Assembly (NCBI GenBank): GCA_018056375.1 | Contig: JAGPFQ010000001.1 | Coordinates: 522,231 to 586,230, forward strand | Origin: Candidatus Dojkabacteria bacterium | GTDB lineage: Bacteria > Patescibacteriota > Dojkabacteria > SC72 | Reading direction: 5' to 3' | Length of the DNA stretch: 64,000 bases | Shown: positions 2,745-57,766 of the stretch, piece by piece | Layout: each line of letters opens with the position of its first letter | How positions within the stretch are numbered: the first letter of the stretch is position 1 | Position numbers and translations under genes: made by a program | Notes under the pieces: generated by a model | Database searches by the model: none | What the model saw: the letters and a program-made list of their open reading frames with translations, nothing else | What the model was told of the DNA's origin: nothing

Positions 2745-4169
2745 CTAGTGGGTATCTTTGTCATCATCAGATTCGTTTTGAGCATGCACTTTCTTTTTTC
2801 CAAAGAAATCAATTGCTACCCTTAACTCTTCTTTCTCTTTTGCATACTCTTCAAGAGGAATTTTCTTCTCCCACGCTTCATATGCTTGTAATACGGCTGT
2901 TGCTCCTGATTTCGTACCCATTGGATGAGAATGCACTCCTCCACCCATTGTTGTAATGAAGTCTCGAGTTCCAATTATGTCTAAAAATTCACCGATTAGA
3001 GTGGGATTAAGACCTCCTGAGATTATTGGACAAGTCTTTTTGGTAATTCTCCACAAACCAAGATCCTCATAGTCTTCTCCTTTTTCTTCCATCTCTATTG
3101 CTTTTACTAAATCAACATCCTTTTCTGGAATCTCTGCCCATACTTGGTTAAAGAAATCTCCTTTAGAGAAAAGTCTTAAAGCATGATTTGCAGCCATAAC
3201 ATCTTCCTTAGGTGAACCTGCCATTTTACCTACTGCAGCCGTACCCGTATGGATACCAGAAGCACCAGCTAATCTAGCAAACTTAGTAAGCACGGGAACT
3301 GTAAAGCCAAAAGGAGTTTCTTCTCTAGTAAAAGCCCCATGACCTGCTCTATGGAAGTGTAAGAATACATCAGGATACCTTCTCCTAATTGTTTGTACAG
3401 CCATCCACCCTGCAGTTATACCATCGATTAGGAAAGCATAACTTCCTGGTTTCATTGTCGACCTTATAAGTTCAGCCCTCTCTATCATAGTATCATAGTC
3501 GGCAGCAGAAATATTAAAAGAGTGAACTTTTGTCTTACCTGTTTCCTTTTCAACTCTATCCATAGCATATCTAACATCTCTAACCATAAAATCAAATGGT
3601 GCGAAGTCCTGATCTGCTTGAGGTTCATCATTTTTTACAAAATCACCACCTCCACTCCAGAAATCATAACAAAGCTCTGCATATTCTGATGATGTTAGAC
3701 CTATCTTTGGTTTTATAATAGTTCCTAATACTGGCCTATTATCAATATTAAGATATTCTTTCATCTCTTTGATTGTATAGCTTGGTCCTTCATAGTGAAC
3801 TAACATTTGTGGTGGGAAATACACATCTAGAAGCTTACACTCTTCTAAAGATGACATACCAAAGACATTGCCAGCTAGAAAAGTAATTATATTTTGTACA
3901 TTTCCACCCCTATCAAAAATTCTCCAAGGGTAAGCTATCCAAACAAGATTTCTTGTCTCATCTATTCTGTAAATCCTAGCATTCATACTTTCAGAATATG
4001 AGGTAGCTGCTTTAATTTTGACATTTGAACCGGTTGAAGATTCTGCAGCGACTTCTGTTGCAACATCATCTAAAGGAATACCATTTTTCCCTTTAATTCT
4101 ATATACAGCTAAAAGAAATTGACCATTAAAAACTTCTTGGTCACCTAATTTAAGATACTGAAGTTGCAT
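2745..4169 (-). CDS. rbcL: Ribulose-1,5-bisphosphate carboxylase large subunit, form II/III (archaeal-type)
   Basis: GTIIKPKIGL (K175/K177), GGGDFVKNDE (carbamylated K201, D203, E204), LHFHRAGHGAFTR (H294/R295), GIHTGTAAVGKMAG (H327/K334), GGGVHSHP (loop 6 / phosphate-binding region) and LAGNVFG (N123). All catalytic residues are present, so it is not a RuBisCO-like protein. Confidence 0.9.
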   Translation of the reverse strand: MQLQYLKLGDQEVFNGQFLLAVYRIKGKNGIPLDDVATEVAAESSTGSNVKIKAATSYSESMNARIYRIDETRNLVWIAYPWRIFDRGGNVQNIITFLAGNVFGMSSLEECKLLDVYFPPQMLVHYEGPSYTIKEMKEYLNIDNRPVLGTIIKPKIGLTSSEYAELCYDFWSGGGDFVKNDEPQADQDFAPFDFMVRDVRYAMDRVEKETGKTKVHSFNISAADYDTMIERAELIRSTMKPGSYAFLIDGITAGWMAVQTIRRRYPDVFLHFHRAGHGAFTREETPFGFTVPVLTKFARLAGASGIHTGTAAVGKMAGSPKEDVMAANHALRLFSKGDFFNQVWAEIPEKDVDLVKAIEMEEKGEDYEDLGLWRITKKTCPIISGGLNPTLIGEFLDIIGTRDFITTMGGGVHSHPMGTKSGATAVLQAYEAWEKKIPLEEYAKEKEELRVAIDFFGKKKVHAQNESDDDKDTH

Positions 4170-29063: not shown

Positions 29064-29894
29064 ATGAAACAACATGCAATACCTCAAAATGTATTAGATG
29101 TAGAGTTTAAACTATTTACTAAGTTTACTCTTAAGGAATTTGCTTATTTAGCAATAGGTGTAGGTATTGGTGGTTTATTCCTCTATCTAACCGTAAGTAA
29201 AAAGATTCCTGCTATAATAGGTATCCCTATCTTTGTAGTATTCTCTGGTGCAGGTGTTTTCTTAGCTCTTGTCCCTATCAATGATCAACCTGCAGACAAA
29301 TTTATACAAAACTATATAACAGCAATCACAAATCCAACACAAAGAGTATGGAAAAGCAAAAACCAAGGAGACAAAGCACAAAAACCTGGAGTTAAACCCT
29401 CAAAAGATGGTACACTTGTCTCCAAAGATGTAAAGGAAAGACCCAAGATTATTGGTTCCTCTATAAGTAAGAGTAAGATTGTAGAAGAGACTTCAGAAAA
29501 TGTTAAAGCCATAGACAGACAAATAGAAGAAGCAGAAAAAGCTACTATTATAAGACAGGTTGATGCAAATAAAATATTAATTAACTCTGAAAACATATCT
29601 AACTATCAATTTAATATCAAAGGGTTTGAAAACATTCCTGGAAATATTAACCTATGGCTATCTACAAAAGATTACCAACCCATACCAAATGTTGTAGCAC
29701 AACTCAAAGATAGCAGTGGTAATTTACTCTATGCAAATAAAACAGGATCTAATGGATATTTCCTAACTAATAAGAGATGGAATCCTGATAAATATGTTGT
29801 AGAATTTGAATCTGGGGAATATAAATTTCCAAAGGTGGAAATTATTCTTACTGGAAGAGAAAGTAATTTACCTATTAAAATATCTGCTCTGTAA
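29064..29894 (+). CDS. PrgI/VirB3-like small membrane protein of Gram-positive-type type IV secretion systems
   Basis: Two closely spaced TM helices near the N-terminus (FAYLAIGVGIGGLFLYL...IIGIPIFVVFSGAGVFLALV). Immediately upstream of a VirB4 ATPase. The family assignment comes from architecture and context, so it is tentative. Confidence 0.45.
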   Translation: MKQHAIPQNVLDVEFKLFTKFTLKEFAYLAIGVGIGGLFLYLTVSKKIPAIIGIPIFVVFSGAGVFLALVPINDQPADKFIQNYITAITNPTQRVWKSKNQGDKAQKPGVKPSKDGTLVSKDVKERPKIIGSSISKSKIVEETSENVKAIDRQIEEAEKATIIRQVDANKILINSENISNYQFNIKGFENIPGNINLWLSTKDYQPIPNVVAQLKDSSGNLLYANKTGSNGYFLTNKRWNPDKYVVEFESGEYKFPKVEIILTGRESNLPIKISAL

Positions 29895-29896
29895 TT

Positions 29897-30541
29897 ATGG
29901 ATAAAAGAAAAGCAAAGGCTAGAGCCACAGCAACAGCATCAACTCAAGACCATCTTGCAGTACGTGATATTAGAGATGATTTGATTATTAATAAGAATGG
30001 AAGTGTATCCATGGTTATTCAAACATCTGCTATCAACTTCGATCTTTTGGCAGAATATGAGCAAGATAATAAAATATTAGCATTTGGTGGTTTACTAAAC
30101 TCTCTTAACTTCCGTGTTCAAATAATGATTAGGACAAAAAGAATTGATATTAGTAACTATATTACATACTTGAGATCACAAAGAGACAAAAGTATGAGTG
30201 AAGGACTACAAAAGCAGTTAGATATATATACCCACTTTATAGAAAACTTAATTGTCGAGAATGATGTCTTAGATAAAACATTCTTTATAATAGTACCATA
30301 TCATACAGGAGCAGTTTTACCAGAAGTTTCTCTATTTAAAGGTAAGAAAAGTAATACAGAGGAAGAGGCTATCGCCAACCAAAAGATAGAACAATTACTT
30401 GAAAAAGCTAAGATATTCTTAAACCCAAAGAGAGATCACATACTTAAACAGTTAAGTAGGATGGGACTATCTGGTCACCAATTAACAACAAAAGAATTAA
30501 TTTCAGAACTATACACAATGTATAATCCTGAAGAGGAGTAG
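29897..30541 (+). CDS. Hypothetical protein, T4SS-module associated
   Basis: Translationally coupled between the PrgI-like and VirB4 genes. No TM segment and no recognisable motif. Confidence 0.3.
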   Translation: MDKRKAKARATATASTQDHLAVRDIRDDLIINKNGSVSMVIQTSAINFDLLAEYEQDNKILAFGGLLNSLNFRVQIMIRTKRIDISNYITYLRSQRDKSMSEGLQKQLDIYTHFIENLIVENDVLDKTFFIIVPYHTGAVLPEVSLFKGKKSNTEEEAIANQKIEQLLEKAKIFLNPKRDHILKQLSRMGLSGHQLTTKELISELYTMYNPEEE

Positions 30542-30549
30542 TAAAGAAA

Positions 30550-32970
30550 ATGGAAAATAACAAAACAATTACAAGTAAAACAAGTAATATGCTCTCTGAT
30601 AGGCAGAAGAGCCTGCAAACCTCTGGAGAGAAATATGCTCAATTCCAGGAGCAGATTAAAGTAGACCCTAGTGCAGTTGAAGATACTAGAAGACATCCTA
30701 CAGAAGAATTTGTAGACCCTAATAAGCAAGATGGAAAAAAGAAAAGTCCTGTTTTGAGATTTTTGGATAAGATTGCAGAGAAAGTAAACCAAGGAGAGAA
30801 AGAGACAAATCCAAGTGAAGATATTATATTACAAGAAGAAACTGAAGAATACATTTCTCCCCTTGGTACAAAGACCGATTTGTCTATTCAGGATCTTGTT
30901 GCACCAATAGATATGGAGATTGATTTCAATCATCTTCAAATGGGCGATTATTATTTTAGAACCTTTTTTATCAGTGGATACCCTAGATTTGTAGGACCTA
31001 ACTGGCTCTCCCCTATTATTAACTTTGAACACTCTTTAAGAATAAGTACTTTCTACTATCCTGTTGAATCAAAAGTTATTCTTGAAAAATTAAAAAAGAA
31101 AATAGGAGAGATGGAAGCCACTCTCTATTCTCAAATGGAAGATAGAAAAGTTATAGATCCTTCATTAAAAGTGGCACTCTCTGATGCACAAATGTTACAA
31201 GATTCAATAGCCGAAGGAACAGAGAAGTTCTTCCATTTCTCTATGTATGTAACTATATATGCCAAAGATGAAGATACATTAGAGAAAATCTCACGAAATG
31301 TAGTTTCCACTCTAGCAGCCATGAATGTAACAGCAAAGCCAGCTACACTACAACAAGAACAAGGTTTTATTGGCACTCAGCCACTAGGTATAGACAACCT
31401 ATATATTACAAGAAATATGGACACAACATCTCTTGCAACAACTTTTCCTTTTGTCACTTCGGAGTTGACTATGGATCATGGCATTATGTATGGATTAAAT
31501 GTACACAACAAAAGCTTGGTTGTATTTGACAGATTTGAGTTAGAAAATGCAAATACTGTAGTATTTGCAAAGTCAGGAGCTGGTAAGAGCTATTTTGTAA
31601 AACTCGAGGCAGTTAGAAGTTTAATGTTAGGCACCGAGATTATTATAATTGACCCAGAGAGGGAATATGAAAACTTAGCTCATGCAGTCGATGGAGCATA
31701 TATCTCTTTCTCTCAAGATAAAGGGCATAAAATGAATCCTTTTGAGCTGTCTGGAATCTCTGAAGAGGGAGATGATGAACTAAGAATGAAATTACTTTCC
31801 TTACATGGCTTCTTTAAAGTCCTCTTCGAAGGAATAACAAATATAGAAGATGCTATTTTAGACAGAGCTCTTCAATTAACATACAGAGAGAAGGGAATAA
31901 CTTTTGATCCTAATACACAATCAAACACCCCTCCACTACTTGAAGACTTATACAAAGTTCTTAAAGGTATGGCAGAAACAGAAGCACATGGCCTTGCAAG
32001 AAGATTAGAAAAATATCTAATTGGAAGTGGTGCAGGTGTTTTCAATGAAGCAAGCAACTTCGAGATAGATAATCCTTTTACAGTCTTTAGTGTAAGAGAC
32101 TTACAAGAAGAACTAAAACCTCTAGCTATGTACCTAATGTTAGACTTCATATGGACCAGAATTAGAAAGGATCAGAAAAGAAGATTATTAATAGTTGATG
32201 AAGCTTGGTATATGATGCAATCAGAAGATTCCGCTAAATTTATGTACTCTATAGCTAAACGAGCAAGAAAATATTACTTAGGACTCACTACAATCACACA
32301 AGACGTTGCAGACTTCTTAAATAATGAGATGGGCAGAGCTATCATCTCAAACTCATCTATTCAAATGTTGATGAAACAGAGTCCCTCCGCCGTAGATTTA
32401 CTACAAAGAGTCTTCAATCTTTCTGACGGAGAAAAAGGTTACCTGCTAAGTTGTGACAAAGGACAGGGTCTTTTCTTTGCCGGATCTAATCATGTAGGTA
32501 TCCAAGTTATTTCCAGTGTAGCAGAACATGAATTGATTACTTCAGACCCTAGAGATTTAGAAAAACTAAAAGCTAGGGAGGGACAAGAAGATACAAGGAC
32601 AATAGAGGAGCTAGCACAGATATATGATGCTCCTACAACACAACAACCTACAAGAGACTCCAAACCTGGGAGAGAAGATGAACTGATTAGTGAGGCAGTA
32701 GAAAGAAGAGAAAGACAAAAGGGTATGTTAGAAAAAGAGAGAGAAGCATACCAGCAGGAATTAGAAAGAAAACTACAAGAACAAGAAAAGATAATGAATC
32801 CAGAAAAATTTGCAAAACAAAAAACATTTTTAGACGAATTAAATGAAAATACTTTAACGGGACAAGTAGTTAACCAAAGGAAAGAAACTTTAAAAGGAAG
32901 ACGTCACCTGACACCACAAGGAATGGTTCAAAGTTACCCAAATGAAGAGGAGGATAATGAAAATGTTTAG
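30550..32970 (+). CDS. Type IV secretion system ATPase VirB4/TraC/PrgJ-like
   Basis: Walker A VVFAKSGAGKSYF, Walker B RLLIVDEAWYMM, a VirB4-type N-terminal domain (YYFRTFFISGYPRFVGPNWLSPII), about 800 aa. Confidence 0.85.
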   Translation: MENNKTITSKTSNMLSDRQKSLQTSGEKYAQFQEQIKVDPSAVEDTRRHPTEEFVDPNKQDGKKKSPVLRFLDKIAEKVNQGEKETNPSEDIILQEETEEYISPLGTKTDLSIQDLVAPIDMEIDFNHLQMGDYYFRTFFISGYPRFVGPNWLSPIINFEHSLRISTFYYPVESKVILEKLKKKIGEMEATLYSQMEDRKVIDPSLKVALSDAQMLQDSIAEGTEKFFHFSMYVTIYAKDEDTLEKISRNVVSTLAAMNVTAKPATLQQEQGFIGTQPLGIDNLYITRNMDTTSLATTFPFVTSELTMDHGIMYGLNVHNKSLVVFDRFELENANTVVFAKSGAGKSYFVKLEAVRSLMLGTEIIIIDPEREYENLAHAVDGAYISFSQDKGHKMNPFELSGISEEGDDELRMKLLSLHGFFKVLFEGITNIEDAILDRALQLTYREKGITFDPNTQSNTPPLLEDLYKVLKGMAETEAHGLARRLEKYLIGSGAGVFNEASNFEIDNPFTVFSVRDLQEELKPLAMYLMLDFIWTRIRKDQKRRLLIVDEAWYMMQSEDSAKFMYSIAKRARKYYLGLTTITQDVADFLNNEMGRAIISNSSIQMLMKQSPSAVDLLQRVFNLSDGEKGYLLSCDKGQGLFFAGSNHVGIQVISSVAEHELITSDPRDLEKLKAREGQEDTRTIEELAQIYDAPTTQQPTRDSKPGREDELISEAVERRERQKGMLEKEREAYQQELERKLQEQEKIMNPEKFAKQKTFLDELNENTLTGQVVNQRKETLKGRRHLTPQGMVQSYPNEEEDNENV

Positions 32971-33211
32971 CTTTTTTAAGAAGAAAGATGACACAAACAC
33001 ACAACCTTTAGATGAAGATATCTATCTTGTGACACAGGCAGTGGATACAGATTCTTTAGCAGTAGAACAAAAACAAGATGATTTAGCAAAACTAACCAAA
33101 GCAGAGAGTAAGAAAGAGTATAAATCGAATATTGCTAAATCAATTGCAAATCCTGCCATAGCCAGAGCAGCAACAGCATTACAAATGAAAAACCCTTTCA
33201 AAGGAAATTAG
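32942..33211 (+). CDS. Small hypothetical protein
   Basis: ORF overlapping the VirB4 stop. Weak call. Confidence 0.2.
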   Translation: MKRRIMKMFSFFKKKDDTNTQPLDEDIYLVTQAVDTDSLAVEQKQDDLAKLTKAESKKEYKSNIAKSIANPAIARAATALQMKNPFKGN

Positions 33212-34389
33212 CTTAGTGGTCCTTGGTCTACATTAAGGAATTCTCCCAAATTATCTTTATTAATAACTATTGGAAGTGAATGACCATCTACAATCTTTCT
33301 TGCTGCACTCCTAATCATTGTTCCTATATTTCTCTCTAATTGCCTTATACCAGCATCAAAACCAACTGGTCGAATAACCGAAAGCCAAATATCATCACTA
33401 ATCTGAATATGCTCAGATGAAAGATTTAATTCTTTAAGAACATTTGGAAGAATATATTTCTTTGCTATTACCTCTTTCTCTTCATCTGAATAGCTTGTAA
33501 ACCTAATTATCTCTACTCTATCTAATAAAGCTGCAGATAGTCCTCCTAGATTATTTGCGGTACAAATAAACATTACTCTGGAGAGGTCTACTGGGTAATC
33601 TATGTAATGGTCAACAAATGTATTATTCTGTTCTGGGTCTAATATCTCTAGTAATGTAGCCATAACATCACTTAACAAACCGGCATTACCACTAGCCTTT
33701 TCGATCTCGTCTAGTAGTATGACAGGATTCATAGTTCCACATCTAACTAATGCTTTAATTATCTGTCCTGGCTCCCCGTCTATAGAATATCTAGGCGTCC
33801 CTCTTAAAGTTCTAACATCTCCAATTGCACCTAGTGATATCCTTACAAACTTTCTATTCATAGATTTTGCAATTGATTTCGCTATTGAAGTCTTACCCAC
33901 ACCTTGTAGACCTACAAACATAAAAACAGGAGAATGTACTTCAAAATCTTCATATTGTTCAACAGGTCTTGATTCTCTAGCTTGCGAATCCATAGGTATT
34001 TGGGTTGGGACATTTGCTACATTTGTTACATTTCCAGCTTTTAACTGCATGGAAGCTAGATAGTCTAAAATCAGATTCTTAACAGAGTCCATACCGTGAT
34101 GAGTACTATCCATTATCTCTTTAGCTTGTGCTATATCTAAACAATCTTGAGATACATTACCCCACGGTATCCTTACTATCCAATCTATATATTTACTTAC
34201 ATTCTCAAACTCATTACTATACCCACCCATTCTAACCATTCTTTTTAACCTTTGGATAGAGAGCATAGCTTCTTCTTTGAGCTCTGTTGGTGTAGATGAG
34301 GAATTTAATTTATTCTCTAATTGAGTTATTTCAGCTAAACTTTCATCAAGCACACTTGTTGTTGTAGGTAGGGCAGTATTGTTATCCAT
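33208..34389 (-). CDS. Lon-like AAA+ ATPase lacking both the LAN N-domain and the C-terminal protease domain
   Basis: YIDWIVRIPWGNVSQ, Walker A GLQGVGKTSIAKSIA, RKFVRISLGAIGDVRTLRGTPRYSIDGEPGQII, Walker B ILLDEIEKAS, LLEILDPEQNNTFVDHY sensor/arginine-finger region, DRVEIIRFTSYSDEEK. The ORF stops exactly where the Lon protease domain would begin. Confidence 0.8.
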   Translation of the reverse strand: MDNNTALPTTTSVLDESLAEITQLENKLNSSSTPTELKEEAMLSIQRLKRMVRMGGYSNEFENVSKYIDWIVRIPWGNVSQDCLDIAQAKEIMDSTHHGMDSVKNLILDYLASMQLKAGNVTNVANVPTQIPMDSQARESRPVEQYEDFEVHSPVFMFVGLQGVGKTSIAKSIAKSMNRKFVRISLGAIGDVRTLRGTPRYSIDGEPGQIIKALVRCGTMNPVILLDEIEKASGNAGLLSDVMATLLEILDPEQNNTFVDHYIDYPVDLSRVMFICTANNLGGLSAALLDRVEIIRFTSYSDEEKEVIAKKYILPNVLKELNLSSEHIQISDDIWLSVIRPVGFDAGIRQLERNIGTMIRSAARKIVDGHSLPIVINKDNLGEFLNVDQGPLS

Positions 34390-34446
34390 ATTATAAATAA
34401 GTGTATATTTAACAATCTATTAAGTCAAATCTGTCCGTTGTTGATT

Positions 34447-34725
34447 CTATTGGTAGTCAAGATTTCCTCCATGAACATCAATTGCATCCTGAACTATGTC
34501 ATCAACCTTTGTACGAAACTCCTTTGTTTCCACCAAAGCTCCTGCAATCATATCCAAAGCTTCTGGGGTACTTGCGATTATTTCAGCTAGAAGAGTAACA
34601 AAGTGTGGATCTGTAGCTAATTTGTTTTTAAATCCAAGTGTCAAATCATTCTCCTCTTGTCCCCTTCCTCGAGATGGGTTTTCATTTCCTCCATTGGGAT
34701 ACCCCACATTTTCACTCCCTATCAT
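34447..34725 (-). CDS. Small hypothetical protein
   Basis: ORF only. Confidence 0.2.
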   Translation of the reverse strand: MIGSENVGYPNGGNENPSRGRGQEENDLTLGFKNKLATDPHFVTLLAEIIASTPEALDMIAGALVETKEFRTKVDDIVQDAIDVHGGNLDYQ

Positions 34726-34743
34726 AATTTTAATATTAAAAAT

Positions 34744-36558
34744 TTAATTTCTATTTACATTATACATCTTCTCTAACTCATTAACCCTAGTAGCATCATT
34801 AGCACTCTTATCCCTATCCCACTCCACTAATCTAGGGAATCTAAGTGAAAGACCACCACCAATATTCTCATCACCTAATCTTCTTGTAATCTCATCTGCC
34901 TCAACAGTAAAAACAACCTCTGGATATATCCATACATCAGGCTTCAAATTCTCTGGACAGAGTACACTCTTTGGTTGCTCCTCTTCTATCTTAGACTCCA
35001 ACTGCTCATAAATACTCTTCAATTGTTCATCAGTAAAACCTGTCCCTACCTTACAGATAGCTTCATAACCATCAGTTTCCTCATTATACAAAGCACCCAA
35101 TATTGCACCTACACCTAAATCTGATCTTCTTCCAGAACCATGATAGTAACCAACACATACTAGATCTACAGTGTCAACTAAAGAACTCAGCATGCTCTTC
35201 TTCAGCTTGATCCAATCATAGTTTCTAACACCTGGTAAATATCCACCTGTTTGCATCTTGGCGATTACTCCTTCATATCCCTTTTCTACATTTTCATTGA
35301 AGACATTCATTAAACTATCTAAATCTTCAACCCTTTTAGTCTTACATATTTCTAAACTACCATCCATCTTAATCTTCTCAAGAATCTCAATCCTCTTCTG
35401 TGTATCTGTATCTATTAGATCTTTCCCATTTAGATACAAAACATCAAAAACCATTGCCTTAATAGGGATATCCTTAGATGTATCCTCTACCCCATACTTT
35501 CTCCTTCTCTGCATAGTTTCCTGAAAAGGTAAGAACTTGCCATCTTTAAATCCTAAAGCTTCGGAATCTAGAATAAAAGAGGGTTCTTTAACTTGTTTTG
35601 CTGACTCAACAATCTCTGGAAACATCTTTGTAACATCCTCTAAATTTCTTGTAAAAAGCTTTACCTGTACACCATCAGATTCCATATCAAACAGACCAGC
35701 AGATTCTTTTTGAATATATTTCTTCCAAATATATTCCCTCTTCTCAAAATCTTCCTCCCTGTATTTATGAATCTGACATCTTAAACCATCAAACTTAGGC
35801 TGAATCAATGCAGGAACTCCTGTCCTACCAAATGTCTCTTCAAAGCTTCCTACTCTTTCTACTAATCTAGGAAGTACTGGAATACCAGGTTGTAGTTTTA
35901 CATCTTTCAAACTTTCAATGGCTTTCTCTTCACTCTTTCTTGCAATTACAGAGTATATATATCCAATATCAGCACTAACACCATATGCTCGATCTAATTC
36001 TTCTCTCACACTCTTGCTTCCAGATATTACAAAAGAGAAGACATCTAGCAATGTTTTATAGTTGATACCAAACCTTAATTGACCACATATGATTCTTACA
36101 AAATATTTAGCTTCTAGAGGTGAAAGCTTCTGTATTGTTTCTAAAACAACACTATTCTTTCTCTCAACAGAGCCTGTACCTTGTATATTTACAATACCCC
36201 AAAGGGTATCGTATACCTCTTTTATACTTAGTTTCTTTGATGTAAAACTTGCTTTTCCAGAAAACTCTTTTACTGTATCTCCAATATCCCCTAATTCAAC
36301 TCTCTTCTCATTGATATTAAAATTAGGGAGATGTAGCTTGCTGTAGTTTTCCAGCAATGTAAGGAGACTTTTTTCAGAATAGTTGAATTCGCTATCAAGA
36401 AAGAACGGTGCTACTCCACCTAATACCATGTAAGAGACTATCTGTCCTTCTTCTTTGGTTAACTCTTTGTAGAAATCTGCGAGAATACTTGTGATCTCAT
36501 TCCTAGAGTTTGTTTTCTCTATCTGTTCGAATATATTTGCAACCTCATTGAAATCCAT
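34744..36558 (-). CDS. ATP-dependent DNA ligase
   Basis: Adenylation motif I KFDGLRCQIH (KxDG), nucleotidyltransferase and OB-fold domains, about 600 aa. Confidence 0.9.
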   Translation of the reverse strand: MDFNEVANIFEQIEKTNSRNEITSILADFYKELTKEEGQIVSYMVLGGVAPFFLDSEFNYSEKSLLTLLENYSKLHLPNFNINEKRVELGDIGDTVKEFSGKASFTSKKLSIKEVYDTLWGIVNIQGTGSVERKNSVVLETIQKLSPLEAKYFVRIICGQLRFGINYKTLLDVFSFVISGSKSVREELDRAYGVSADIGYIYSVIARKSEEKAIESLKDVKLQPGIPVLPRLVERVGSFEETFGRTGVPALIQPKFDGLRCQIHKYREEDFEKREYIWKKYIQKESAGLFDMESDGVQVKLFTRNLEDVTKMFPEIVESAKQVKEPSFILDSEALGFKDGKFLPFQETMQRRRKYGVEDTSKDIPIKAMVFDVLYLNGKDLIDTDTQKRIEILEKIKMDGSLEICKTKRVEDLDSLMNVFNENVEKGYEGVIAKMQTGGYLPGVRNYDWIKLKKSMLSSLVDTVDLVCVGYYHGSGRRSDLGVGAILGALYNEETDGYEAICKVGTGFTDEQLKSIYEQLESKIEEEQPKSVLCPENLKPDVWIYPEVVFTVEADEITRRLGDENIGGGLSLRFPRLVEWDRDKSANDATRVNELEKMYNVNRN

Positions 36559-40858: not shown

Positions 40859-43549
40859 CTATCCAATCAACTCCGCCATATCCTTACCACTACTACTAGA
40901 AACATCTAAATGTACCTCCATTGATACAACATTTTTCATAATCTCTTTTGCTTTCTTCTCAAACTCCTCTACTCTCTCCTCTTTGACCTCAAATATTAAT
41001 TCATCATGAATCTGTAGAAGGATAAAAGCATCATCCTTAAAGTTCTTCTCAATCTCCTCATCTAATTTAATCATGGCCAGCTTCATAACATCAGCTTCAC
41101 CTCCCTGTATCGGCATATTAATAGCCTCTCTCTGTGCTGCTCTAACCATCCTCATATTCTTAGACCTAATACCTCTAATCCACCTCGTAGTACCAAACAT
41201 AGTTTGAACATATCCCCTCTTATATGCCTCCTTCTCTAGAGACCTCATATACTCCTCTACCCCAACATAATGCTGAAAGTAATCTGTAATATACTTCTGT
41301 GCCGTATCAACAGGAATACCAAGCATACTAGCAAGACCAAAAGCAGTTTGACCAAACAAAATACCGAAGTTAATAGTCTTCCCAAGACTCCTCTCCTCTT
41401 TAGTAACATCCTCTACTTCTTTACTTAAAATTCTACTAGCTGTGGCTCTGTGAATATCTATACCATTTTGAAAGTCCTCTACCAAAAGATTATCTTTAGA
41501 CATATCTGCAAGAATCCTTAACTCTATCTGTGAATAGTCCATGGATACAAACCTAAACCCATCTCTAGCAACAAAAGCTTTTCTAATCTTCTCAGCCCAC
41601 TCACCCTGTATTGGAATATTCTGCATATTAGGATTAGATGAAGAGAACCTTCCTGAGGATGTACCTGTCTGTTTGTAATTAGTATGAATGGTACTCTCTG
41701 GATCTTCTCTTCCCATCTCCAACAAAGGAATTACATATGTAGTATGTATCTTACTCAACTCTCTATATTCCAATATCTTCTCAATTACTGGATGAGTACC
41801 TTTTAATTCAATTAAAACAGATTCTCTAGTAGAACCTTTCTTCTTGTCAGGTAAATCTAATTCTTTAAACAAAACATCAGACAACTGCTTAGGAGAGTTA
41901 ATATTAAACTCATGACCAATACAATCATATATACCCTTGGTTACCTTTGATATCTCTTCAGAAAGCTCTCCATCCAACTTCTCTAGCCAACCAGTATCCA
42001 CCATTATCCCCTTACTCTCCATCTTAGAAAGAATCTTACAAATTGGTACCTCTATCATCTCCAAACTATTCTCAAAGAATCTCTCTCCCACACCTAAGTA
42101 CTCTCTCATACTGTTTTTAGTATACTCATACAACTCAATACTATTCGCCTTCTTTATCTCTCTCTCCTTAATCTCCCCAAGTGCATCTAAAACCTTTTTC
42201 ATCTCAGAAGGATGAATCTTCTCATCAAAGATGCTTCCAGAGAAATCAAAAGCTAAATCCTTAAATTGATAACTTCTCTTCTCAGAGTTAATTAAATGAG
42301 CAAAAAGAGAAACATCAAAAAGCTTACCATTAGGAACACCTATCTGTTCTGTAATTTGTTCTAAACCATATATTAGTTTCTCACAATCAGTATTAATAAT
42401 TTGGTGAATATCCTTGAAAAGATAATCCTCAGATTTACCTGTAGAAGCGACCTTCCTTACAAAACTAAAACTCTCTCCGGTAGCAGACTCTGACGCATCA
42501 AAATATGCAATTAGGAGTTTCTCTGTATCCTTACAAATATCTTCTACATCCTCCTCTTTCACCCATTTAACCTCCTCTATTGTTCCTGTTGAGAAGATAT
42601 CTAACTGTGTACTTACATTACTCTTTTCATCTTCCTTTAAACTATCAATCTTCTTAATCAATGACTTAAATGCATATTTATGGAATACCTCTAACACCTC
42701 TTTTTTATCAAAATCTCTCATCAAACAATCTTCTAGATGTATATTTAGATCAACATTCTGTTCAATTGTAGCTAACTTTCTACTCATCTCTGCCTGCTCT
42801 ACACCTTCCATGAGAAGATTAGCATATCTAGGTTTTACCTCTGCTAAGTTTTCATATATTTTGTTTAAACTCCCATACCTATCCAACAACTCTATTGCTG
42901 TCTTAACCCCCACTCCCTTTACTCCAGGTATGTTATCCGATGCATCACCTGCCATAGCTTTGTAGTCAACTATCTGTTCTGGATATAGTCCAAACTTCTT
43001 TTTTGTTCCAATTCTGTCGTATGCAACAAGGTCACTAAAACTTTTTTGTGGCAGTGCTATCTTCACATTCTCAGTTATTAACTGCAACAAATCCCTATCC
43101 CCACTTAATATATACAACTCAATATTTTCATTACTCCACTTCCCTTCTCTTACATATTTGGATATTGTTCCTAATATGTCATCTGCTTCAAATCCTTCTT
43201 TTTTTAGAATGGGAATATTAAATGCTTGGAGTATTTCTTCTACCAAAGGAAATTGATCTATGAGAGACTGGTCTGTGGGTTTTCTAGTAGCTTTGTAGTC
43301 TGGGAACTCTACATGTCTAAATGTTGGTTTAGCTGTATCAAATGAACAGAGTACATATTTAGGTTCAAACATTTTTAAAGCTTCTAAGAGCATTACTGTA
43401 AAACCATATGCTGCATTTACCTGTATACCATCTTCTGTTTGAAGTGTAGGAGGATATGCATGGAATGCTCTATGTACTATTGCATTGGCATCTATGGCTA
43501 AGAATCTATCCTTACCATTTTTTATCAAATTCATACTGTATTTTATCAC
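40859..43549 (-). CDS. polA: DNA polymerase I
   Basis: N-terminal 5'-3' exonuclease (LAIDANAIVHRAFHAY) and family A polymerase motifs (RRLAKTINFGILFGQTAFGLA, QIHDELIFE). Confidence 0.93.
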   Translation of the reverse strand: MIKYSMNLIKNGKDRFLAIDANAIVHRAFHAYPPTLQTEDGIQVNAAYGFTVMLLEALKMFEPKYVLCSFDTAKPTFRHVEFPDYKATRKPTDQSLIDQFPLVEEILQAFNIPILKKEGFEADDILGTISKYVREGKWSNENIELYILSGDRDLLQLITENVKIALPQKSFSDLVAYDRIGTKKKFGLYPEQIVDYKAMAGDASDNIPGVKGVGVKTAIELLDRYGSLNKIYENLAEVKPRYANLLMEGVEQAEMSRKLATIEQNVDLNIHLEDCLMRDFDKKEVLEVFHKYAFKSLIKKIDSLKEDEKSNVSTQLDIFSTGTIEEVKWVKEEDVEDICKDTEKLLIAYFDASESATGESFSFVRKVASTGKSEDYLFKDIHQIINTDCEKLIYGLEQITEQIGVPNGKLFDVSLFAHLINSEKRSYQFKDLAFDFSGSIFDEKIHPSEMKKVLDALGEIKEREIKKANSIELYEYTKNSMREYLGVGERFFENSLEMIEVPICKILSKMESKGIMVDTGWLEKLDGELSEEISKVTKGIYDCIGHEFNINSPKQLSDVLFKELDLPDKKKGSTRESVLIELKGTHPVIEKILEYRELSKIHTTYVIPLLEMGREDPESTIHTNYKQTGTSSGRFSSSNPNMQNIPIQGEWAEKIRKAFVARDGFRFVSMDYSQIELRILADMSKDNLLVEDFQNGIDIHRATASRILSKEVEDVTKEERSLGKTINFGILFGQTAFGLASMLGIPVDTAQKYITDYFQHYVGVEEYMRSLEKEAYKRGYVQTMFGTTRWIRGIRSKNMRMVRAAQREAINMPIQGGEADVMKLAMIKLDEEIEKNFKDDAFILLQIHDELIFEVKEERVEEFEKKAKEIMKNVVSMEVHLDVSSSSGKDMAELIG

Positions 43550-47136: not shown

Positions 47137-47934
47137 ATGAAAACAGAAGAAATATCCGTAGAGGAAGTCACAAAGACAGAGGAAAAGAGTGTTGTAAAAT
47201 CAAAATCACCTGTCATTATCTTAACTATAGCCCTTGCATTCATATCTTTACTAGCTTTAGGTATGTTACTCTATCGTTTTAACAATCAAAGCCAAAAATC
47301 TACGATGGAAAAAGATTGTATATGTAAAAAATGCGAAGAGAAGAATGACTGTGATTGTTCATTAAAGGGGACAGAGTTAACAAATTCAGGTTGGGCTTTG
47401 TATTCCCTACCCGACATTAAGTTTAGTGTAGAAATTCCTTCAGATTTTATTAAATTTAACCTTGATAATAGTGATCATGATTTAAAGTCAAGATGGACAA
47501 TAACTCAATATATTGATCCCGAAAATAAATCTAAAGATTTTGGAGAATATATTAAAACTATAAATATGGAATTCTCACCTTTTTACATCAAAGTTCCTTC
47601 TTTAGACATTCCAACACATGGTGAAAGCTTCATATATGTTACTGTGTTAAAAAATACCAAAGAAAAAACACTCGAAGAACTTTGGACTCTTGAAAAAGCC
47701 CCTTATGAAGACCCTGCAGATGAATATAAAGTAGAAGGCAAATTAATAGAGAAGTGGGGAGTACCTGCATATGAGTTTAAGATAAGTGGTGCTCCATACG
47801 GACCATACACAGGATATTTAGTTGTAAGTAATGGGTTCGTATATAGAATCTCTTACAATTTCTCTACACTTAAAGAAGTTGCTGAAGCCACTAGTTCAGG
47901 TATAAAAATAATAGATTCTATACAGTTTAACTAA
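47137..47934 (+). CDS. Hypothetical membrane-anchored secreted protein
   Basis: N-terminal TM helix. No recognisable domain. Confidence 0.3.
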   Translation: MKTEEISVEEVTKTEEKSVVKSKSPVIILTIALAFISLLALGMLLYRFNNQSQKSTMEKDCICKKCEEKNDCDCSLKGTELTNSGWALYSLPDIKFSVEIPSDFIKFNLDNSDHDLKSRWTITQYIDPENKSKDFGEYIKTINMEFSPFYIKVPSLDIPTHGESFIYVTVLKNTKEKTLEELWTLEKAPYEDPADEYKVEGKLIEKWGVPAYEFKISGAPYGPYTGYLVVSNGFVYRISYNFSTLKEVAEATSSGIKIIDSIQFN

Positions 47935-49826
47935 ACAAAGAGTTCCTCAAATTCTTCTCTTGTAACAACTTCTTTCTCTAGTAGCAAGTCAACCAATTTA
48001 TCAACATACTCTTTCTGTTCTGTTAGAACTTTCTTAGCATCCACATATGCCTCATCAATCAACCTCTTCACTTCAGCATCTATTGTCTTTGCTGTTTCCT
48101 CACTAAAGTCTCTGCCACCACCATATTTATATCCTAGATGAGAAGTCTCATCCATATCACCATATTTAACCATACCTAACTTTTCACTCATACCGTATTT
48201 CATAACCATCTCTTTAGCTAATTCTGTTGCCTGCTCAATATCTGCAGAAGCACCTGAAGAAATATCATCCAAGAATATCTCCTCAGCAGCTCTACCACCA
48301 ACACCACTCCTCAACCAAGCCAACATCTGGTTCTTGTAAAGAGTTCTCCTCTCTTTTTCTGGTATGTAAACTGTTACTCCTCCTGTCATACCTCTTGGAA
48401 TAATGGAAACCTGCTCTACTGGGTCAGAACCTGGTGTAAATTTAGCAACAATCGCATGTCCTGCTTCATGATATGCTGTCTTCCTCAAATCCTCTTCCTC
48501 TGTCTCCCTGTTTTTCTTTCTACCAAGTTTAACCTTTAAAAATGCTTCATCAATATCATCCTGCCCTATCTCCTTATCACCTTCCTGTGCTGCCATAATA
48601 GCTGCCTCATTAAGAATATTTTCTAAATCTGCACCAGAATACCCTATTGTCTTCTTAGCAAGATCCTTTAGATTAACACCATCCGCAAACTTCTTGTTCT
48701 TAGCATGTACTTCTAAAATTTCTTCTCTGCCCTTAGCATCTGGCATATGAACCACAACCATCCTATCAAACCTACCAGGTCTTAAAATCGCTGGATCAAG
48801 AACATCTGGCCTGTTTGTAGCTGCAAGTACAATTACATTCTCTCTATCTTCTAAACCATCCATCTCAACAAGAATCTGATTAAGAGTCTGTTCACCTGCA
48901 CCAGAATGAAGTACCGTACCTCTCTTCTTAGCAACAGCATCAATCTCATCGATAAAGATAATACATGGTGTAGTATTCCTTGCCTTCTTGAAAAGGTCTC
49001 TCACTCTAGATGCTCCAGCACCTACCAACATCTCCTCAAATTCAGAACCAGATGTATGGAAAAATGGAACACCAGCTTCACCAGCGATAGCTTTTGCTAA
49101 GAGTGTCTTACCTGTACCAGGAGCACCTGCTAGAAGAACACCTCTTGGGATTCGTGCTCCCAAATCTCTATATTTCTTAGGGTTTTTAAGAAAATCTACT
49201 ATCTCTGTCAATTCCTCTTTAACATCATCAATACCTGCAACATCATCAAAAGATGTCCCTGTCTTCTTACCAAACAACATCCTAGCTTTACTCTCACCAA
49301 AATCCATAATCTTACCACCAGAAGCCTGCATATTTTTAATCATGAAAAACCCAAGTGTTACTGCTGCTGTTAAAAAGAGTAAAGTCAACACATCACCAAA
49401 AGATATTCCAACTTTTGGTTCATAGAAATCATCTCCTAATTCCTTAATATTTATCTCTGCATCAGAGAGGACTTGATAGAAATCCATTCCTTGAGGTAAT
49501 CTTGCATACTCTTTTCTAACAACATCCCTACCAGCAATCTTTTCTTCCTTTTCTAACACAACCATATCATCTTTCAGAACAATCTTGTCATAGTCTTTCT
49601 CTGAAATACTTGTAATCACATTACTAACAGAAACTTCCTCTCCTTTATAGGAAAGAAGACCATAAAGATACATACCTAGAGACACTAAAACTACTATACT
49701 TATAATAGCAGGAACACTAGGAAGCTTAACTCTTCTCCCTGTAGGCATCTTTCTCAAATCCACAACATATACATTCTTCTTATCTTCTGTCTTTTTATTC
49801 TTCTTTTTATCTTTCTGTTCGCTCAT
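47931..49826 (-). CDS. ftsH: ATP-dependent zinc metalloprotease FtsH
   Basis: Two N-terminal TM helices, AAA+ Walker [29 protein letters not shown], the second region of homology (SRH), and zinc-binding HEAGHAIV. Confidence 0.95.
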
Positions 49827-49876
49827 AGACCTAAAGTTTCAATTTTAAATAAGATAGGAATATTATCTTTAAAGTA

Positions 49877-49950
49877 TGGTGGGAAGTGGAATCGAACCAC
49901 CGACCTTGGGTTTATGAATCCCATGCTCTAACCAACTGAGCTATCCCACC
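49877..49950 (-). tRNA. tRNA-Met (anticodon CAU), elongator-type; tRNA-Ile2 (lysidine CAU) not excluded
   Basis: Minus strand folds as GGUGGGA/UCCCACC acceptor (G1-C72), D arm GCUC/GAGC, anticodon loop UUCAUAA, T arm GGUGG-UUCGAUU-CCACU. CCA is not encoded. Confidence 0.85.
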
Positions 49951-50062
49951 AAGTACTAGCAATTATATCAAAGAACTCCAGATAAGGTAACCGCAGGTGT
50001 TTGTATATACAGAGAGCGGACTATTAGTGATTTTGAAGAGATATTTAACATACTATAAGGTG

Positions 50063-53298: not shown

Positions 53299-53373
53299 TG
53301 GTTGCGGGGGCTGGATTCGAACCAGCGACCTTTAGGTTATGAGCCTAACGAGCTTCCACTGCTCTACCCCGCG
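53299..53373 (-). tRNA. Initiator tRNA-fMet (anticodon CAU)
   Basis: CGCGGGG...CCCCGCAACCA with the C1:A72 mismatch, A11:U24, anticodon loop CUCAUAA, G30-C40/G31-C39 in the anticodon stem, T loop UUCGAAU, encoded CCA. Very close to the E. coli tRNA-fMet body. Confidence 0.9.
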
Positions 53374-54962: not shown

Positions 54963-55138
54963 ATAATTAACTCTTAATACAGGTTCAGGTTACCACACTT
55001 ACTTTCCCTTTCCCCATATGGACTATTACCGTTTTATTATGATTAGTTAACAAATTACAGGGTACTGTTTCCCTGTCACTATCTAACACCGAATCACAGT
55101 TTTGACTGAGGATTCTTCTCTTATATCAATGAAAAGTA

Positions 55139-55212
55139 TGGGAATAGGTGGACTCGAACCACCGACTTCGGCTTTATAAGAACCGTGCTCTGACCTCCTG
55201 AGCTATATTCCC
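55139..55212 (-). tRNA. tRNA-Ile (anticodon UAU)
   Basis: Minus strand GGGAAUA/UAUUCCC acceptor, discriminator A73, D arm GCUC-AGGAGGUCA-GAGC, anticodon stem CGGUU/AGCCG with loop CUUAUAA (U34 A35 U36), T arm GGUGG-UUCGAGU-CCACC. CCA is not encoded. Confidence 0.8.
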
Positions 55213-55261
55213 ATATACAATGGGTATTTTACCAAAACTCTGATGATTTTAGAAGCCTCTA

Positions 55262-57766
55262 CTAAAACATTGGTGGAAAACCTGCAGAAGGTTGAGGTTG
55301 AGCTACAGGCTCCTCCTGTTCAAGTTGAGACCTAATACGAATATCTTCTGCAACAACATTTACATCCCTTCCATACTTCATCCTAGACATCTCTTTAATC
55401 ACTTTTACAACACTCTCATCTATAGGTAAATCAAACCCTGACTCTGGAAAAGCTTTACCATAACTGGTATCAAGAGAAAAAGGTGCGGGATATGAACCAT
55501 CAACAAGAAGTTTTGTATAGTAATGAGCCATACCCTGATTTACAATATCTCCAGCTGTAACATAACCTTCAAATGGAGTTTCTAAAAATTGTGCATCTTC
55601 AGGACTGCATCTGGCAATATACAGAGAACCTACATTTCCAAAAACAGCATCTTTAATATCCTCTGGTAATTGTCCAATATATTGATGTGCTAAAGTAAGA
55701 TTTAGTCTGTATTTCCTTGCTTCTGAAAGAATAGAGGTGAACTCCTCAGTAGCAAAGTTTTGAAACTCATCAGCATAGAAGAAGAAGTCCCTTCTCTCTT
55801 TTTCAGGGATATTCTCTCTACTCAATGCTGCAGCAAGAAGTTTTTGTACAATCAAAAGACCAAGAAAGGACATATTCTCATCTCCTATCAAACCTTTAGA
55901 AAGATTTACAACCAAAATCTTACCCTCATCCATAACCTGTCTAAAATCAAAAGAAGATTTAGATTGACCAATTATATTTCTAATAGCTAAGTTCGTAGTA
56001 AACTTATCAAACTTCGAGATAAAATATGTCAAAGACTCTGCCTTTGTCTTTTTATCTGTCTTTGCAACCTGATCAGTCCAATATCTAACAACCAATTCAT
56101 CTTTAACCAATGGTAACCAATGACTCATAACCCATTCTTCATCTTGAAGAATTCTCACCACTTCTATCAATGTAGAATCTGGTTTAGCCATAGCTGTTAA
56201 CATAGAGTTTCTTACAGCTTGCTGGAATGCTGGACCTGTGTAACCTTGATTATGTGGGTCAAAGAGCCTTATGAGTAAAGCAAGGAAACTATTTACAATC
56301 TGGTGCTTATGCTGCTCATTATAATATTCCATAATATTAAAACCAAAAGGTCTCTCAAAATCACCAGCATTAAAATAGATAACATCCTCTGCTCTCTCTG
56401 CTGGAATCCTTTCCAATATCATATCTGCAGCAGAACCGTGAGGGTCTATAAAGCAGACACCATCACCGTTATATATATCTTGCATAATCATCCTTACCAT
56501 CAACCAAGATTTACCAGTACCTGTTTGACCTAGTATATATGCATGTCTTCTCCTGTCATCCCTTTTCGAACATATCATCTTCTTTTTCCCTCTAAAGTAG
56601 TTATTTCCAACCCAAACAGTGTCTGGAGAGTTAATATCCGAACTTATTTCATTATCAGCAGGTAGTTCTTTTGATAACAACCATTTAATATTAGGAGTAG
56701 TTATTTCTTTATTTGGGAAATGATACAATGCTGCAAGTTCTTCAATGTTTAATATACTCTTCTCATTCTCAGGTGTCCTTCTGTAGATTACATCGTAGAG
56801 GAAAGCCTCCTGCTCTCTTTTCTTTACTTCTTTTTTCTCTAACCTATTAATTCCCGGATTATTATACTGATCAAAAGCTGCAACAATATTATCCAAATGC
56901 ATTTTGGCAATTGCTTTGTCTGGAGCACTAGTAACAATTCTAATCTCTGCCATCAACCCTGGTTTGGACACCTTCTTGTTAACAGCTTCTAATTTCTCCT
57001 GAGGCACATCTATTTTCTTTTTTTCTGGATCTGAGTTATTCTTCTCTATACTTTGAACAAACCCTCTACCTTTTTTCTGCCATTTAGAATCAGTAGGAGC
57101 AACTGCTAATTGGACTAATGCTCCCTCATTCTCGGCCATTTTACTAAGAGTACTAAGAACATTAGCTATTGGATCGCCAGTAAAGCCTTCAGCCACTCTA
57201 ATTGGATAGTATGACTCCTCTTCTAAAACAAGTCTTGCACATTCTATCTCTGTGTTAGGAGCAAAGATGTTGTATTCATCTACGACAGCTACATCAGCAT
57301 CTTGATACGAACCAAGTATTTGCTTTTCTACTAAATCAGCATACTTCCTTGGGCAGTGAACAAAGAACCTTATCTCTCCAGGAAGACCTACCATTTCAAA
57401 ACTTACACTGTTGCTAACATCAAACAATCCTAACAAGCCTTTGCTCTTCCCTCCTATGCCATGTATATTTGCAAACATCTGCTCTGCAGTACCTATTTCC
57501 ACCTCGTTATCCCGTATTACTCTAACTTCCAGAAGAACACCATCACTAGCTTTTTCATTTCTATCCTTCTTTTTTAACTTCTTTCTTACTAAAAAAAATG
57601 CTCCTACACATATGGCTATAAGTACAAAAATCAATGTTATCGTACCCCAAGGGATTTCAGTGTTTTCAATACTTTTAGCATTGTCAGGATACCGCATAGT
57701 ACTACCATCCTGTTTTGGTAAAGAAGGACCAATTAATTGTGTATAGAGAATGTCTTCAGGCAACAT
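55262..57766 (-). CDS. Type IV secretion coupling protein-like ATPase (VirD4/TraG/TraD family)
   Basis: N-terminal TM helix (ITLIFVLIAICVGAFFLV), Walker A YILGQTGTGKSWLM, Walker B FFFYADEFQNF, about 830 aa. Confidence 0.6.
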   Translation of the reverse strand: MLPEDILYTQLIGPSLPKQDGSTMRYPDNAKSIENTEIPWGTITLIFVLIAICVGAFFLVRKKLKKKDRNEKASDGVLLEVRVIRDNEVEIGTAEQMFANIHGIGGKSKGLLGLFDVSNSVSFEMVGLPGEIRFFVHCPRKYADLVEKQILGSYQDADVAVVDEYNIFAPNTEIECARLVLEEESYYPIRVAEGFTGDPIANVLSTLSKMAENEGALVQLAVAPTDSKWQKKGRGFVQSIEKNNSDPEKKKIDVPQEKLEAVNKKVSKPGLMAEIRIVTSAPDKAIAKMHLDNIVAAFDQYNNPGINRLEKKEVKKREQEAFLYDVIYRRTPENEKSILNIEELAALYHFPNKEITTPNIKWLLSKELPADNEISSDINSPDTVWVGNNYFRGKKKMICSKRDDRRRHAYILGQTGTGKSWLMVRMIMQDIYNGDGVCFIDPHGSAADMILERIPAERAEDVIYFNAGDFERPFGFNIMEYYNEQHKHQIVNSFLALLIRLFDPHNQGYTGPAFQQAVRNSMLTAMAKPDSTLIEVVRILQDEEWVMSHWLPLVKDELVVRYWTDQVAKTDKKTKAESLTYFISKFDKFTTNLAIRNIIGQSKSSFDFRQVMDEGKILVVNLSKGLIGDENMSFLGLLIVQKLLAAALSRENIPEKERRDFFFYADEFQNFATEEFTSILSEARKYRLNLTLAHQYIGQLPEDIKDAVFGNVGSLYIARCSPEDAQFLETPFEGYVTAGDIVNQGMAHYYTKLLVDGSYPAPFSLDTSYGKAFPESGFDLPIDESVVKVIKEMSRMKYGRDVNVVAEDIRIRSQLEQEEPVAQPQPSAGFPPMF

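Follow-up and report, generated by a model that had tools for sequence, protein, structure and literature searches.

What remains of Lon when its protease is taken away, and what such a remnant may do in the cell, is the question raised by one gene in a 64,000-nucleotide stretch of a Candidatus Dojkabacteria chromosome (contig JAGPFQ010000001.1), referred to here, at its full length, as the window. Lon is the standard textbook example of a peptidase joined to its unfoldase, and all Lons, of subfamilies A, B, C and BA, are said to carry the ATPase and protease domains in a single polypeptide (PMC9569914). The gene at 33208..34389 on the minus strand departs from this rule: it is complete, and the list of open reading frames (ORFs) shows it as a genuine ORF with an ATG start and a stop codon at 33208-33210, encoding a Lon-derived AAA+ ATPase of 393 residues without a protease. 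The evidence set out below suggests that the product is, on balance, probably a stand-alone housekeeping ATPase that would remodel proteins without degrading them, a short form of Lon that is conserved across much of the candidate phyla radiation (CPR).

The architecture of the protein is that of the three-helix bundle NTD3H, the AAA+ module and the lid of Lon, without the LAN domain and without the S16 protease domain. The only Pfam matches are AAA (PF00004, residues 157-298; E=3.2e-20, 73.4 bits against a gathering cut-off of 21.2) and Lon_lid (PF22667, residues 319-370; E=4.9e-10), with none to Lon_C (S16) or LON_substr_bdg (LAN) in the 393 residues. Only positions 253-567 of the 795 in the NCBIfam model TIGR00763, 'endopeptidase La', are aligned, at 329.6 bits and thus below the equivalog cut-off of 608.05, and the PRK10787 score of 253.6 bits lies below the cut-off of 891. 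The closest solved structures are LonA and LONP1 chains, with about 40% identity over the three-helix bundle (residues 19-116) and the AAA+ module (residues 150-388); an AlphaFold2 monomer model, built from a 40-sequence alignment (mean pLDDT 78.7, pTM 0.73), begins with five helices, followed by an alpha/beta domain and a lid made of helices, and its best Foldseek superpositions, on the AAA+ modules of LONP1 and bacterial LonA, have a TMq of about 0.75. These matches, together with the six-frame search described below, bear out the original prediction, made from the DNA letters, that a Lon AAA+ module without LAN and protease domains is encoded here. The motif-by-motif alignment on which it leaned holds as far as the module is of the Lon type; two of the motifs quoted, RISLGGxxD..IRG and DRxEVIxxSGY, are the canonical consensus, and this protein actually reads RISLGAIGDVRTLRG and DRVEIIRFTSY.

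Read from the N-terminus, residues 9-117 (34039..34365, minus strand, as for all the segments that follow) form a helix from the end of the long helix of Lon and then NTD3H, as delimited by the AlphaFold2 helices (9-29, 35-54, 58-73, 86-96 and 101-117) and by an alignment with B. subtilis Lon. The N-terminus had been described as only the coiled-coil helix that precedes the AAA+ module; it consists instead of that helix (residues 9-29) and of the complete NTD3H (residues 35-117), the entire three-helix bundle that caps the AAA+ ring in Lon. Also missed was the low-confidence stretch of about 35 residues that follows, an insertion of variable length and predicted disorder (residues 118-152, 33934..34038; pLDDT 46-60) between NTD3H and strand beta1. 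The AAA+ large subdomain (residues 153-298, 33496..33933) corresponds to the Pfam AAA match and holds Walker A (G160-T167), Walker B (D227/E228), the PS1-beta-hairpin residues Y262/D264, sensor-1 (N279), the Arg finger (R291) and a remodelled pore loop 1 (residues 196-208, 33766..33804), which reads RGTPRYSIDGEPG, the canonical Lon sequence being RGHRRTY[IV]GAMPG. The Lon-type lid, or small AAA+ subdomain (residues 299-385, 33235..33495), includes the Pfam Lon_lid match, sensor-2 (R349) and the family signature RP[VL]GFDAG[IVL]R, and the protein ends with the tail NVDQGPLS (residues 386-393, 33211..33234), the equivalent of the lid-protease linker of Lon. The reading frame stops within this linker, and the placement of the ORF end at the AAA+/protease boundary was therefore correct. 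In the model as a whole, confidence is low at residues 1-9, 141-150, 189-192 and 389-393.

The missing domains were not found in the vicinity of the gene. Three S16 and two LAN domains were searched with phmmer --max against the 478 six-frame stop-to-stop segments of the window, and neither domain was found in any of the six frames (best E=0.48); the contiguous S16 frame downstream, which had been set beforehand as the counter-evidence to look for, does not exist in any frame. Only 237 bp separate the stop of the gene from that of the convergent VirB4 gene (32970), and they are taken up by a conserved small plus-strand ORF (32942-33211), in agreement with the remark that too little DNA remains there for a protease domain. 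The search was extended by tblastn to 87 family loci, that is, L001-L007 and L087-L166, the last 80 coming from a metagenome scan seeded with family-specific motifs (39-76% identity). A contig scan with the pattern DPEQNNTF had given one Dojkabacteria locus only (L007) and was useless for synteny; the canonical Lons of unrelated phyla that it pulled in (79 loci, L008-L086) served as the positive control for S16 and LAN. Neither domain was found within up to 10 kb at any of the 87 family loci, whereas the same queries detected S16 in 78 and LAN in all of the 79 control loci. The ORFs at the family loci have 343-425 residues and end 0-12 residues from the equivalent of query residue 385-393, with L140 having the sole 41-residue tail; L126 and L163 (internal stop) and three ORFs cut by the contig end are the exceptions to this range.

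These searches bear directly on the idea of a split Lon, in which the ATPase would be the unfoldase half that feeds a separately encoded S16 or other peptidase, as ClpX does ClpP and HslU does HslV. The protein does end exactly at the lid-protease linker, its ATPase machinery is intact, and the C-terminal DQGPLS, nearly invariant in Dojkabacteria (114 of 120 homologues), could serve for docking. Nevertheless, the products of a gene fission usually remain adjacent, and neither the 64 kb window nor the surroundings of the 87 loci, to about 10 kb, yielded an S16 domain; moreover, the tails differ by clade, DQGPLS against FLPQ[WY]. ClpX, HslU and ClpB, the stand-alone unfoldases of the HCLR clade, are also AAA+ ring modules without a covalently attached peptidase, and in this respect they resemble the 393-residue protein, which is not orthologous to them and shows neither an IGF/LGF loop nor an HslU-type I-domain; the D2 domains of ClpA and ClpB have weak sequence similarity to it. 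No ClpP or HslV partner was identified, though no genome-wide search for one was made. As far as the window and the 87 loci go, a split Lon is unlikely, and the pore loops described below add to the case against it.

The short form is not an accident of one genome. An identical protein, GenBank MBP8979398.1, is annotated as 'AAA family ATPase [Candidatus Dojkabacteria bacterium]' and is found on 71 contigs, the longest of them 645 kb, and the 120 nearest homologues, all from Dojkabacteria wherever a source is named, share 65-99% identity and have 352-425 residues, P0029 (352 residues) being the only one below 386; no S16 or LAN domain occurs in any of the 120. At all 20 of the Dojkabacteria-clade loci that were fetched, the ORF stops at the equivalent position, and the C-terminus reads DQGPLS in 19, one of them a cut ORF with this tail, and DQGTLS in one. 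The gene is under strong purifying selection, with a Nei-Gojobori ratio of nonsynonymous to synonymous substitution (dN/dS) of 0.063 against the 91%-identical orthologue of L001 and of 0.06-0.11 against more distant orthologues, for which dS is close to saturation. The possibility that a normal lon gene has decayed, or only seems shortened through an assembly error or a frameshift, was considered in view of the short length, the one feature in its favour, and was rejected: none of the frames downstream encodes S16, the C-terminus is the same in independent assemblies, dN/dS is 0.06 and the catalytic residues are invariant, so that the probability left to this explanation is negligible. In particular, the assembly artefact that had been kept in mind is excluded because the short form recurs on many independent assemblies.

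The extent of the family points in the same direction. When 1.84 billion cluster representatives were searched exhaustively with HMMER, the matches were of three kinds, namely short proteins at 42-62% identity, odd multi-module Lons, and LonA proteins of about 800 residues at no more than about 46%, and no single-module full-length Lon more than about 46% identical to the query was among them. With a 349-residue Microgenomates member as the query, at least 7999 proteins were matched at E<=1e-30; the 120 among the matches listed all have 347-351 residues, those named are from Microgenomates group bacterium or Candidatus Woesebacteria, and their annotations are 'Lon protease', 'AAA family ATPase' or 'hypothetical protein'. 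In a neighbour-joining tree of 115 AAA+ modules and 336 columns (52 from the short family, 40 from canonical LonA and 23 from multi-module Lons), one branch (bootstrap 96/100) separates all the short forms from the rest, and the Dojkabacteria clade is recovered in 100/100. Since the short forms make up one clade apart from canonical LonA, the domain losses must be old and vertically inherited. The recent truncation that the original prediction had listed among its three explanations is thus untenable, the short form being present in 120/120 of the nearest homologues and in thousands of Microgenomates proteins, in one clade and under purifying selection. LAN and S16 were probably lost from a LonA in an ancestor of the Microgenomates/Dojkabacteria part of the CPR, the rest of the protein having been kept as a housekeeping protein.

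The multi-module Lons are among the top-scoring HMMER matches and have 900-1700 residues. Two to three Lon-type AAA+ modules stand in tandem ahead of one S16 domain, and LAN is missing; P0121, P0124-P0128, P0130 and P0132-P0136 are among these proteins, and P0121 has predicted N-terminal membrane helices, then three modules and S16. By distance analysis, the tandem-module Lons are nearer to canonical LonA than to the short family.

The residues that are conserved within the short family, and those that have been replaced, indicate what kind of machine may be left. K166 and T167 of Walker A, D227 and E228 of Walker B, N279 of sensor-1, the trans-acting Arg finger R291 and R349 of sensor-2 are invariant in every group, and all groups have kept Y262/D264 of the PS1-beta-hairpin and Y67/W70 of NTD3H. 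The last four correspond to Y456, E458, Y294 and W297 of Y. pestis Lon, the residues that dock NTD3H to the PS1-beta-hairpin (PMC7239648). The pore loops, in contrast with these positions, differ from LonA. In pore loop 1 of Y. pestis Lon, the pair Y398-I399 grips and translocates the substrate (PMC7239648), and the loop of canonical LonA reads H-R-R-T-Y-[IV]-G-A-[ML], its Tyr being present in 63 of 64 sequences. The Dojkabacteria clade has T-P-R-Y-S-[IPV]-D-[AG]-E, with Ser at the Tyr position and an aromatic residue one position earlier in 118 of 120 sequences (Y201 here), whereas the Microgenomates clade has Q-S-R-M-H-P-E-A-E, in which His or another residue replaces the Tyr and an aromatic of any kind occurs in the loop of only 1/120. 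The canonical aromatic-hydrophobic pair is consequently absent from the 393-residue protein, in which Ser stands in its place with Tyr one residue earlier. Throughout the short family a new invariant Glu (E206) replaces Met/Leu in this loop, and Asp or Glu is frequent two residues earlier (D204). Pore loop 2, an aromatic followed by RGDP in canonical Lon, reads VTDxGRASIMGV or SSGNAGLLNDVMA in the short family. Translocation into the Lon chamber is driven by the pore-loop-1 Tyr, and the loss of this residue in 119/120 Microgenomates members is a further argument against a split Lon with a peptidase supplied from elsewhere.

New aromatic residues have appeared in NTD3H. The position ten residues before Y67 is Tyr in 118/118 Dojkabacteria sequences (Y57) and Phe in 108/108 Microgenomates sequences, and A/M/G/S in canonical LonA; the position six residues before Y67 is Phe in 118/118 Dojkabacteria (F61) and Phe or Tyr in 105/108 Microgenomates, and variable in canonical LonA. 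When the residues are counted directly from the YIDW motif, Y57 would be the counterpart of M284 of Y. pestis Lon, whose side chains, in the substrate-bound enzyme, spiral around the substrate in the NTD3H pore (PMC7239648). In summary, the short family shares with LonA (E. coli, Y. pestis, B. subtilis, M. taiwanensis and human LONP1) NTD3H, the AAA+ domain with its PS1 beta-hairpin and the Lon lid, at 40-46% identity; it differs from LonA in having neither LAN nor the S16 Ser-Lys peptidase, in the replacement of both the pore-loop-1 Tyr-Ile/Val and the pore-loop-2 aromatic-RGDP, and in the gain of the loop Glu/Asp and of the NTD3H aromatics, to which Dojkabacteria add an insertion of 31-58 residues.

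These features are consistent with the following mechanism. The protein may assemble into a hexameric ring like that of Lon, because the Arg finger, which is conserved, has a meaning only across a subunit interface, and the invariant Arg finger and Walker B residues suggest that such a ring would hydrolyze ATP. Its protein clients would be remodelled, held or unfolded, the protein acting as a remodeller, holdase or unfoldase, and would not be degraded. The clients would probably be gripped by a ring of the fixed NTD3H aromatics Y57 and F61, a role assigned to these residues because the Tyr-Ile/Val pincer of pore loop 1 is missing; in Dojkabacteria, the shifted Y201 may add to the grip. The grip would be located above a channel that now carries the conserved acidic residues D204 and E206, and processive threading into a chamber would no longer be needed. 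A protease-independent 'chaperone' activity has been reported for Lon and long debated, and offers a comparison for the role proposed here. Among the three explanations offered by the original prediction, the stand-alone Lon-like unfoldase or chaperone is thus the best supported.

Several points weigh against this interpretation. The hexamer and the pore geometry are carried over by analogy with Lon, and the loss of the pore-loop aromatic could mean that polypeptides are no longer handled at all. The S16 search covered the window and up to 10 kb at 87 loci, and a protease acting in trans is possible. The neighbourhood of pnp and rnj in part of the family, described below, would also fit an RNA-related role, and the two conserved motifs that Dojkabacteria carry in disordered segments, [ILV]P[ST]Q[IVFL] in the insertion and DQGPLS at the C-terminus, look like docking sites for a partner. 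A bolder form of the proposal, which is rather unlikely, takes up the last of these points: Lon would have been turned into a new AAA+ machine, with the gripping aromatic moved to the NTD3H ring and an acidic channel, as the main cytosolic protein remodeller of cells without a Lon protease, and in Dojkabacteria it would work with a partner, possibly the type IV secretion system (T4SS), through the two docking motifs.

The insertion before beta1 has 31-58 residues across the Dojkabacteria clade, while canonical Lon and most Microgenomates members lack it; it is variable apart from the motif [ILV]P[ST]Q[IVFL] (NVPTQIP here), which is present in 113 of 118 proteins and in 6% of shuffled inserts. 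A link with secretion has its source in the neighbouring genes, and the emphasis of the original prediction was on the T4SS module beside the gene. This module is a minimal chromosomal T4SS operon (29064..32970, plus strand) made up of a PrgI/VirB3-like gene (29064-29894; Pfam PrgI), a TraC-like gene (29897-30541; named from precomputed annotation in relatives) and VirB4 (30550-32970; Pfam P-loop_TraG/AAA_10/CagE_TrbE_VirB), and its last gene is the conserved small ORF of 89 residues (32942..33211, plus strand), which is regarded as a neighbour only. As had been stated, the operon and the Lon-derived gene are convergent, and therefore they are not co-transcribed; the 3' ends of the small ORF and of the Lon-derived gene overlap by 4 bp, so that the convergent transcripts would collide or overlap. 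The small ORF lies between VirB4 and the Lon-derived gene in 18 loci at 33-83% identity (tblastn), is called as a gene in L001-L005, has 75-83 residues in relatives and has no Pfam or PADLOC match. A homologue of the VirD4/TraG-like coupling protein (T4SS-DNA_transf, DUF87) is encoded at 55262-57766 on the minus strand, about 22 kb from the PrgI-TraC-like-VirB4 operon, and the T4SS genes thus lie dispersed over the chromosome.

Recurrence of the gene beside VirB4 in related genomes was confirmed in part: the two are convergent and directly abut in 19 of the 20 Dojkabacteria loci (61-91% identity), while VirB4 is nearby in 0/67 of the family loci at 39-52% identity. Within Dojkabacteria, the constancy of this flank is an argument that the protein is an accessory ATPase of the T4SS, which would unfold or chaperone secretion substrates or assemble the PrgI-TraC-like-VirB4 apparatus; the other flank varies, with the ligase in L001/L002, rpsI in L004 and, in L005, a hypothetical gene, the 3' ends overlap or lie close together, and the insertion motif, DQGPLS and Tyr201 all arose in the same lineage. 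Against this stand the convergent orientation, which leaves no room for co-transcription, and the conserved block itself, which, beyond the T4SS genes, also includes a nucleotidyltransferase-like gene, recF, lepA and ksgA. CPR virB4 operons generally lie among replication and ribosome-related genes such as ksgA, that is, among housekeeping genes (10.1101/2025.01.22.634366), and the main text of this survey of virB4 neighbourhoods does not mention Lon or an AAA protein. Moreover, the exceptional locus, L006, has no VirB4 neighbour and yet has kept all the clade features, and VirB4 is not found near the more distant members. The T4SS ATPase families VirB4, VirB11 and VirD4 are not among the Pfam or NCBIfam matches of the protein, and its matches among the anti-phage defence profiles of PADLOC-DB show generic AAA similarity, the best being DolB (48.6 bits, AAA core only), with none to the Lon-like BrxL. 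An accessory role in secretion is accordingly improbable, and the emphasis on the T4SS module stands for the gene order of Dojkabacteria and only weakly for function. Because the block includes recF, lepA and ksgA and the adjacency is absent in the distant loci, the position beside VirB4 probably reflects a gene order conserved in one lineage, a weak guide to function, and it serves as a warning against functional readings of adjacency to VirB4.

The contexts found elsewhere in the family raise the alternative of a remodeller directed to nucleic acids, in which the Lon AAA+ module, DNA-binding in E. coli Lon, would have been kept for RNA decay or DNA metabolism. The Microgenomates-type gene lies, on the same strand, in the order rpsO - pnp - [gene] - family-4-type udg - rnj - ftsK (verified with Pfam), the clusters of these neighbours occurring at 28, 23, 22, 19 and 13 of the 65 loci, out of the 67 at 39-52% identity, that had clusterable neighbours; a fuller string, infB ... 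DHH-like - rpsO - pnp - [gene] - udg - rnj - ftsK, recurs among L100-L166 and sets the gene amid RNA-decay and DNA-maintenance functions. This position between pnp and udg-rnj-ftsK, the ATP-dependent DNA ligase beside the gene in the window and the putative polA near it, and the deposition of PDB 6n2i as 'DNA-binding ATP-dependent protease La' would fit such a role. Nevertheless, the neighbourhood evidence is purely positional, and in another subgroup (11/65 loci) the gene is divergent from groES-groEL. In addition, the proteins of the family are acidic, with a mean pI of 5.2-5.7 and a net charge of -5 to -10, and the conserved Asp/Glu of the rewritten pore is unfavourable for nucleic acid. 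A nucleic acid target thus appears quite improbable, and protein remodelling by a housekeeping ATPase is the interpretation retained.

Two further relatives of Lon offer a comparison. The engineered E. coli Lon AAA+ construct 6n2i has near-identical boundaries and matches residues 151-388 (TMt 0.86); it is an artificial fragment with canonical pore loops, whereas the 393-residue protein is natural, under selection and has its loops rewritten. LonC, a Lon-like protease without ATP-powered unfolding, is likewise a Lon relative with one half non-functional and is the mirror image of the present case, with the protease kept and the ATPase module dead (PMC3391209), whereas here the ATPase is intact and the protease absent. 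No curated model specific to a protease-less Lon family exists in Pfam or NCBIfam, and the literature on Lon in Dojkabacteria, Patescibacteria or the CPR and on Lon without protease, of which the coverage was incomplete, gave no paper describing this family. The family is apparently undescribed, and it departs from the Lon paradigm, with a function suggested by its sequences. These sequences have been public for years, often labelled 'Lon protease', and the labels 'ATP-dependent Lon protease' and 'Lon protease' in JGI and in some UniProt and NCBI records are wrong, since these proteins cannot be proteases. The family is also a natural experiment on the Lon motor alone, through which the protease-independent 'chaperone' activity of Lon becomes directly testable, and it raises the question of how very small CPR cells carry out the quality control of cytosolic proteins, FtsH and GroEL/DnaJ being encoded in the window.

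The remaining features of the window complete the description of the locus. Upstream of the Lon-derived gene, on the same strand, lie directly a 92-residue ORF without family match (34447-34725, minus strand) and the gene of a three-domain ATP-dependent DNA ligase of 604 residues (34744-36558, minus strand), an arrangement restricted to the closest relatives (L001-L003); the 92-residue ORF was considered as part of the system and rejected, as it is absent from the 76%-identical L004. In a scan of 32800-34900, a single sigma-70-like site, TTGACT-17-TACACT (34428-34400), was found shortly before the ATG, and a single terminator-like hairpin within the 3' end of virB4, some 290 nt past the gene; shuffled sequence is expected to give as many of each or more, and therefore no weight is given to them. 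The CIRCE heat-shock operator, allowing up to 3 mismatches, had 0 matches in the window.

The window is a piece of core chromosome with a GC content of about 34%, and includes genes for chaperones and a protease (GroEL, 699-2327; DnaJ; FtsH, 47931-49826), for translation and transcription (IF-2, NusA, AlaRS, KsgA and LepA) and for DNA metabolism (HolA, a RecF-like protein and the ATP-dependent DNA ligase); PolA, at 40859-43549, is a putative assignment made solely by analogy with the 891-residue PolA genes of L001/L002. A tRNA-Ile gene with anticodon UAU (tat) is present at 55138-55213 on the minus strand, together with two tRNA genes with anticodon CAT (49876-49951 and 53299-53373); a UAU isoleucine tRNA is uncommon in bacteria, in which AUA is mostly read by a lysidine-modified CAU tRNA. 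Adjoining GroEL, a homologue of the RuBisCO large subunit of 474 residues is encoded at 2745-4169 on the minus strand, probably of the form II/III type reported earlier for CPR bacteria.

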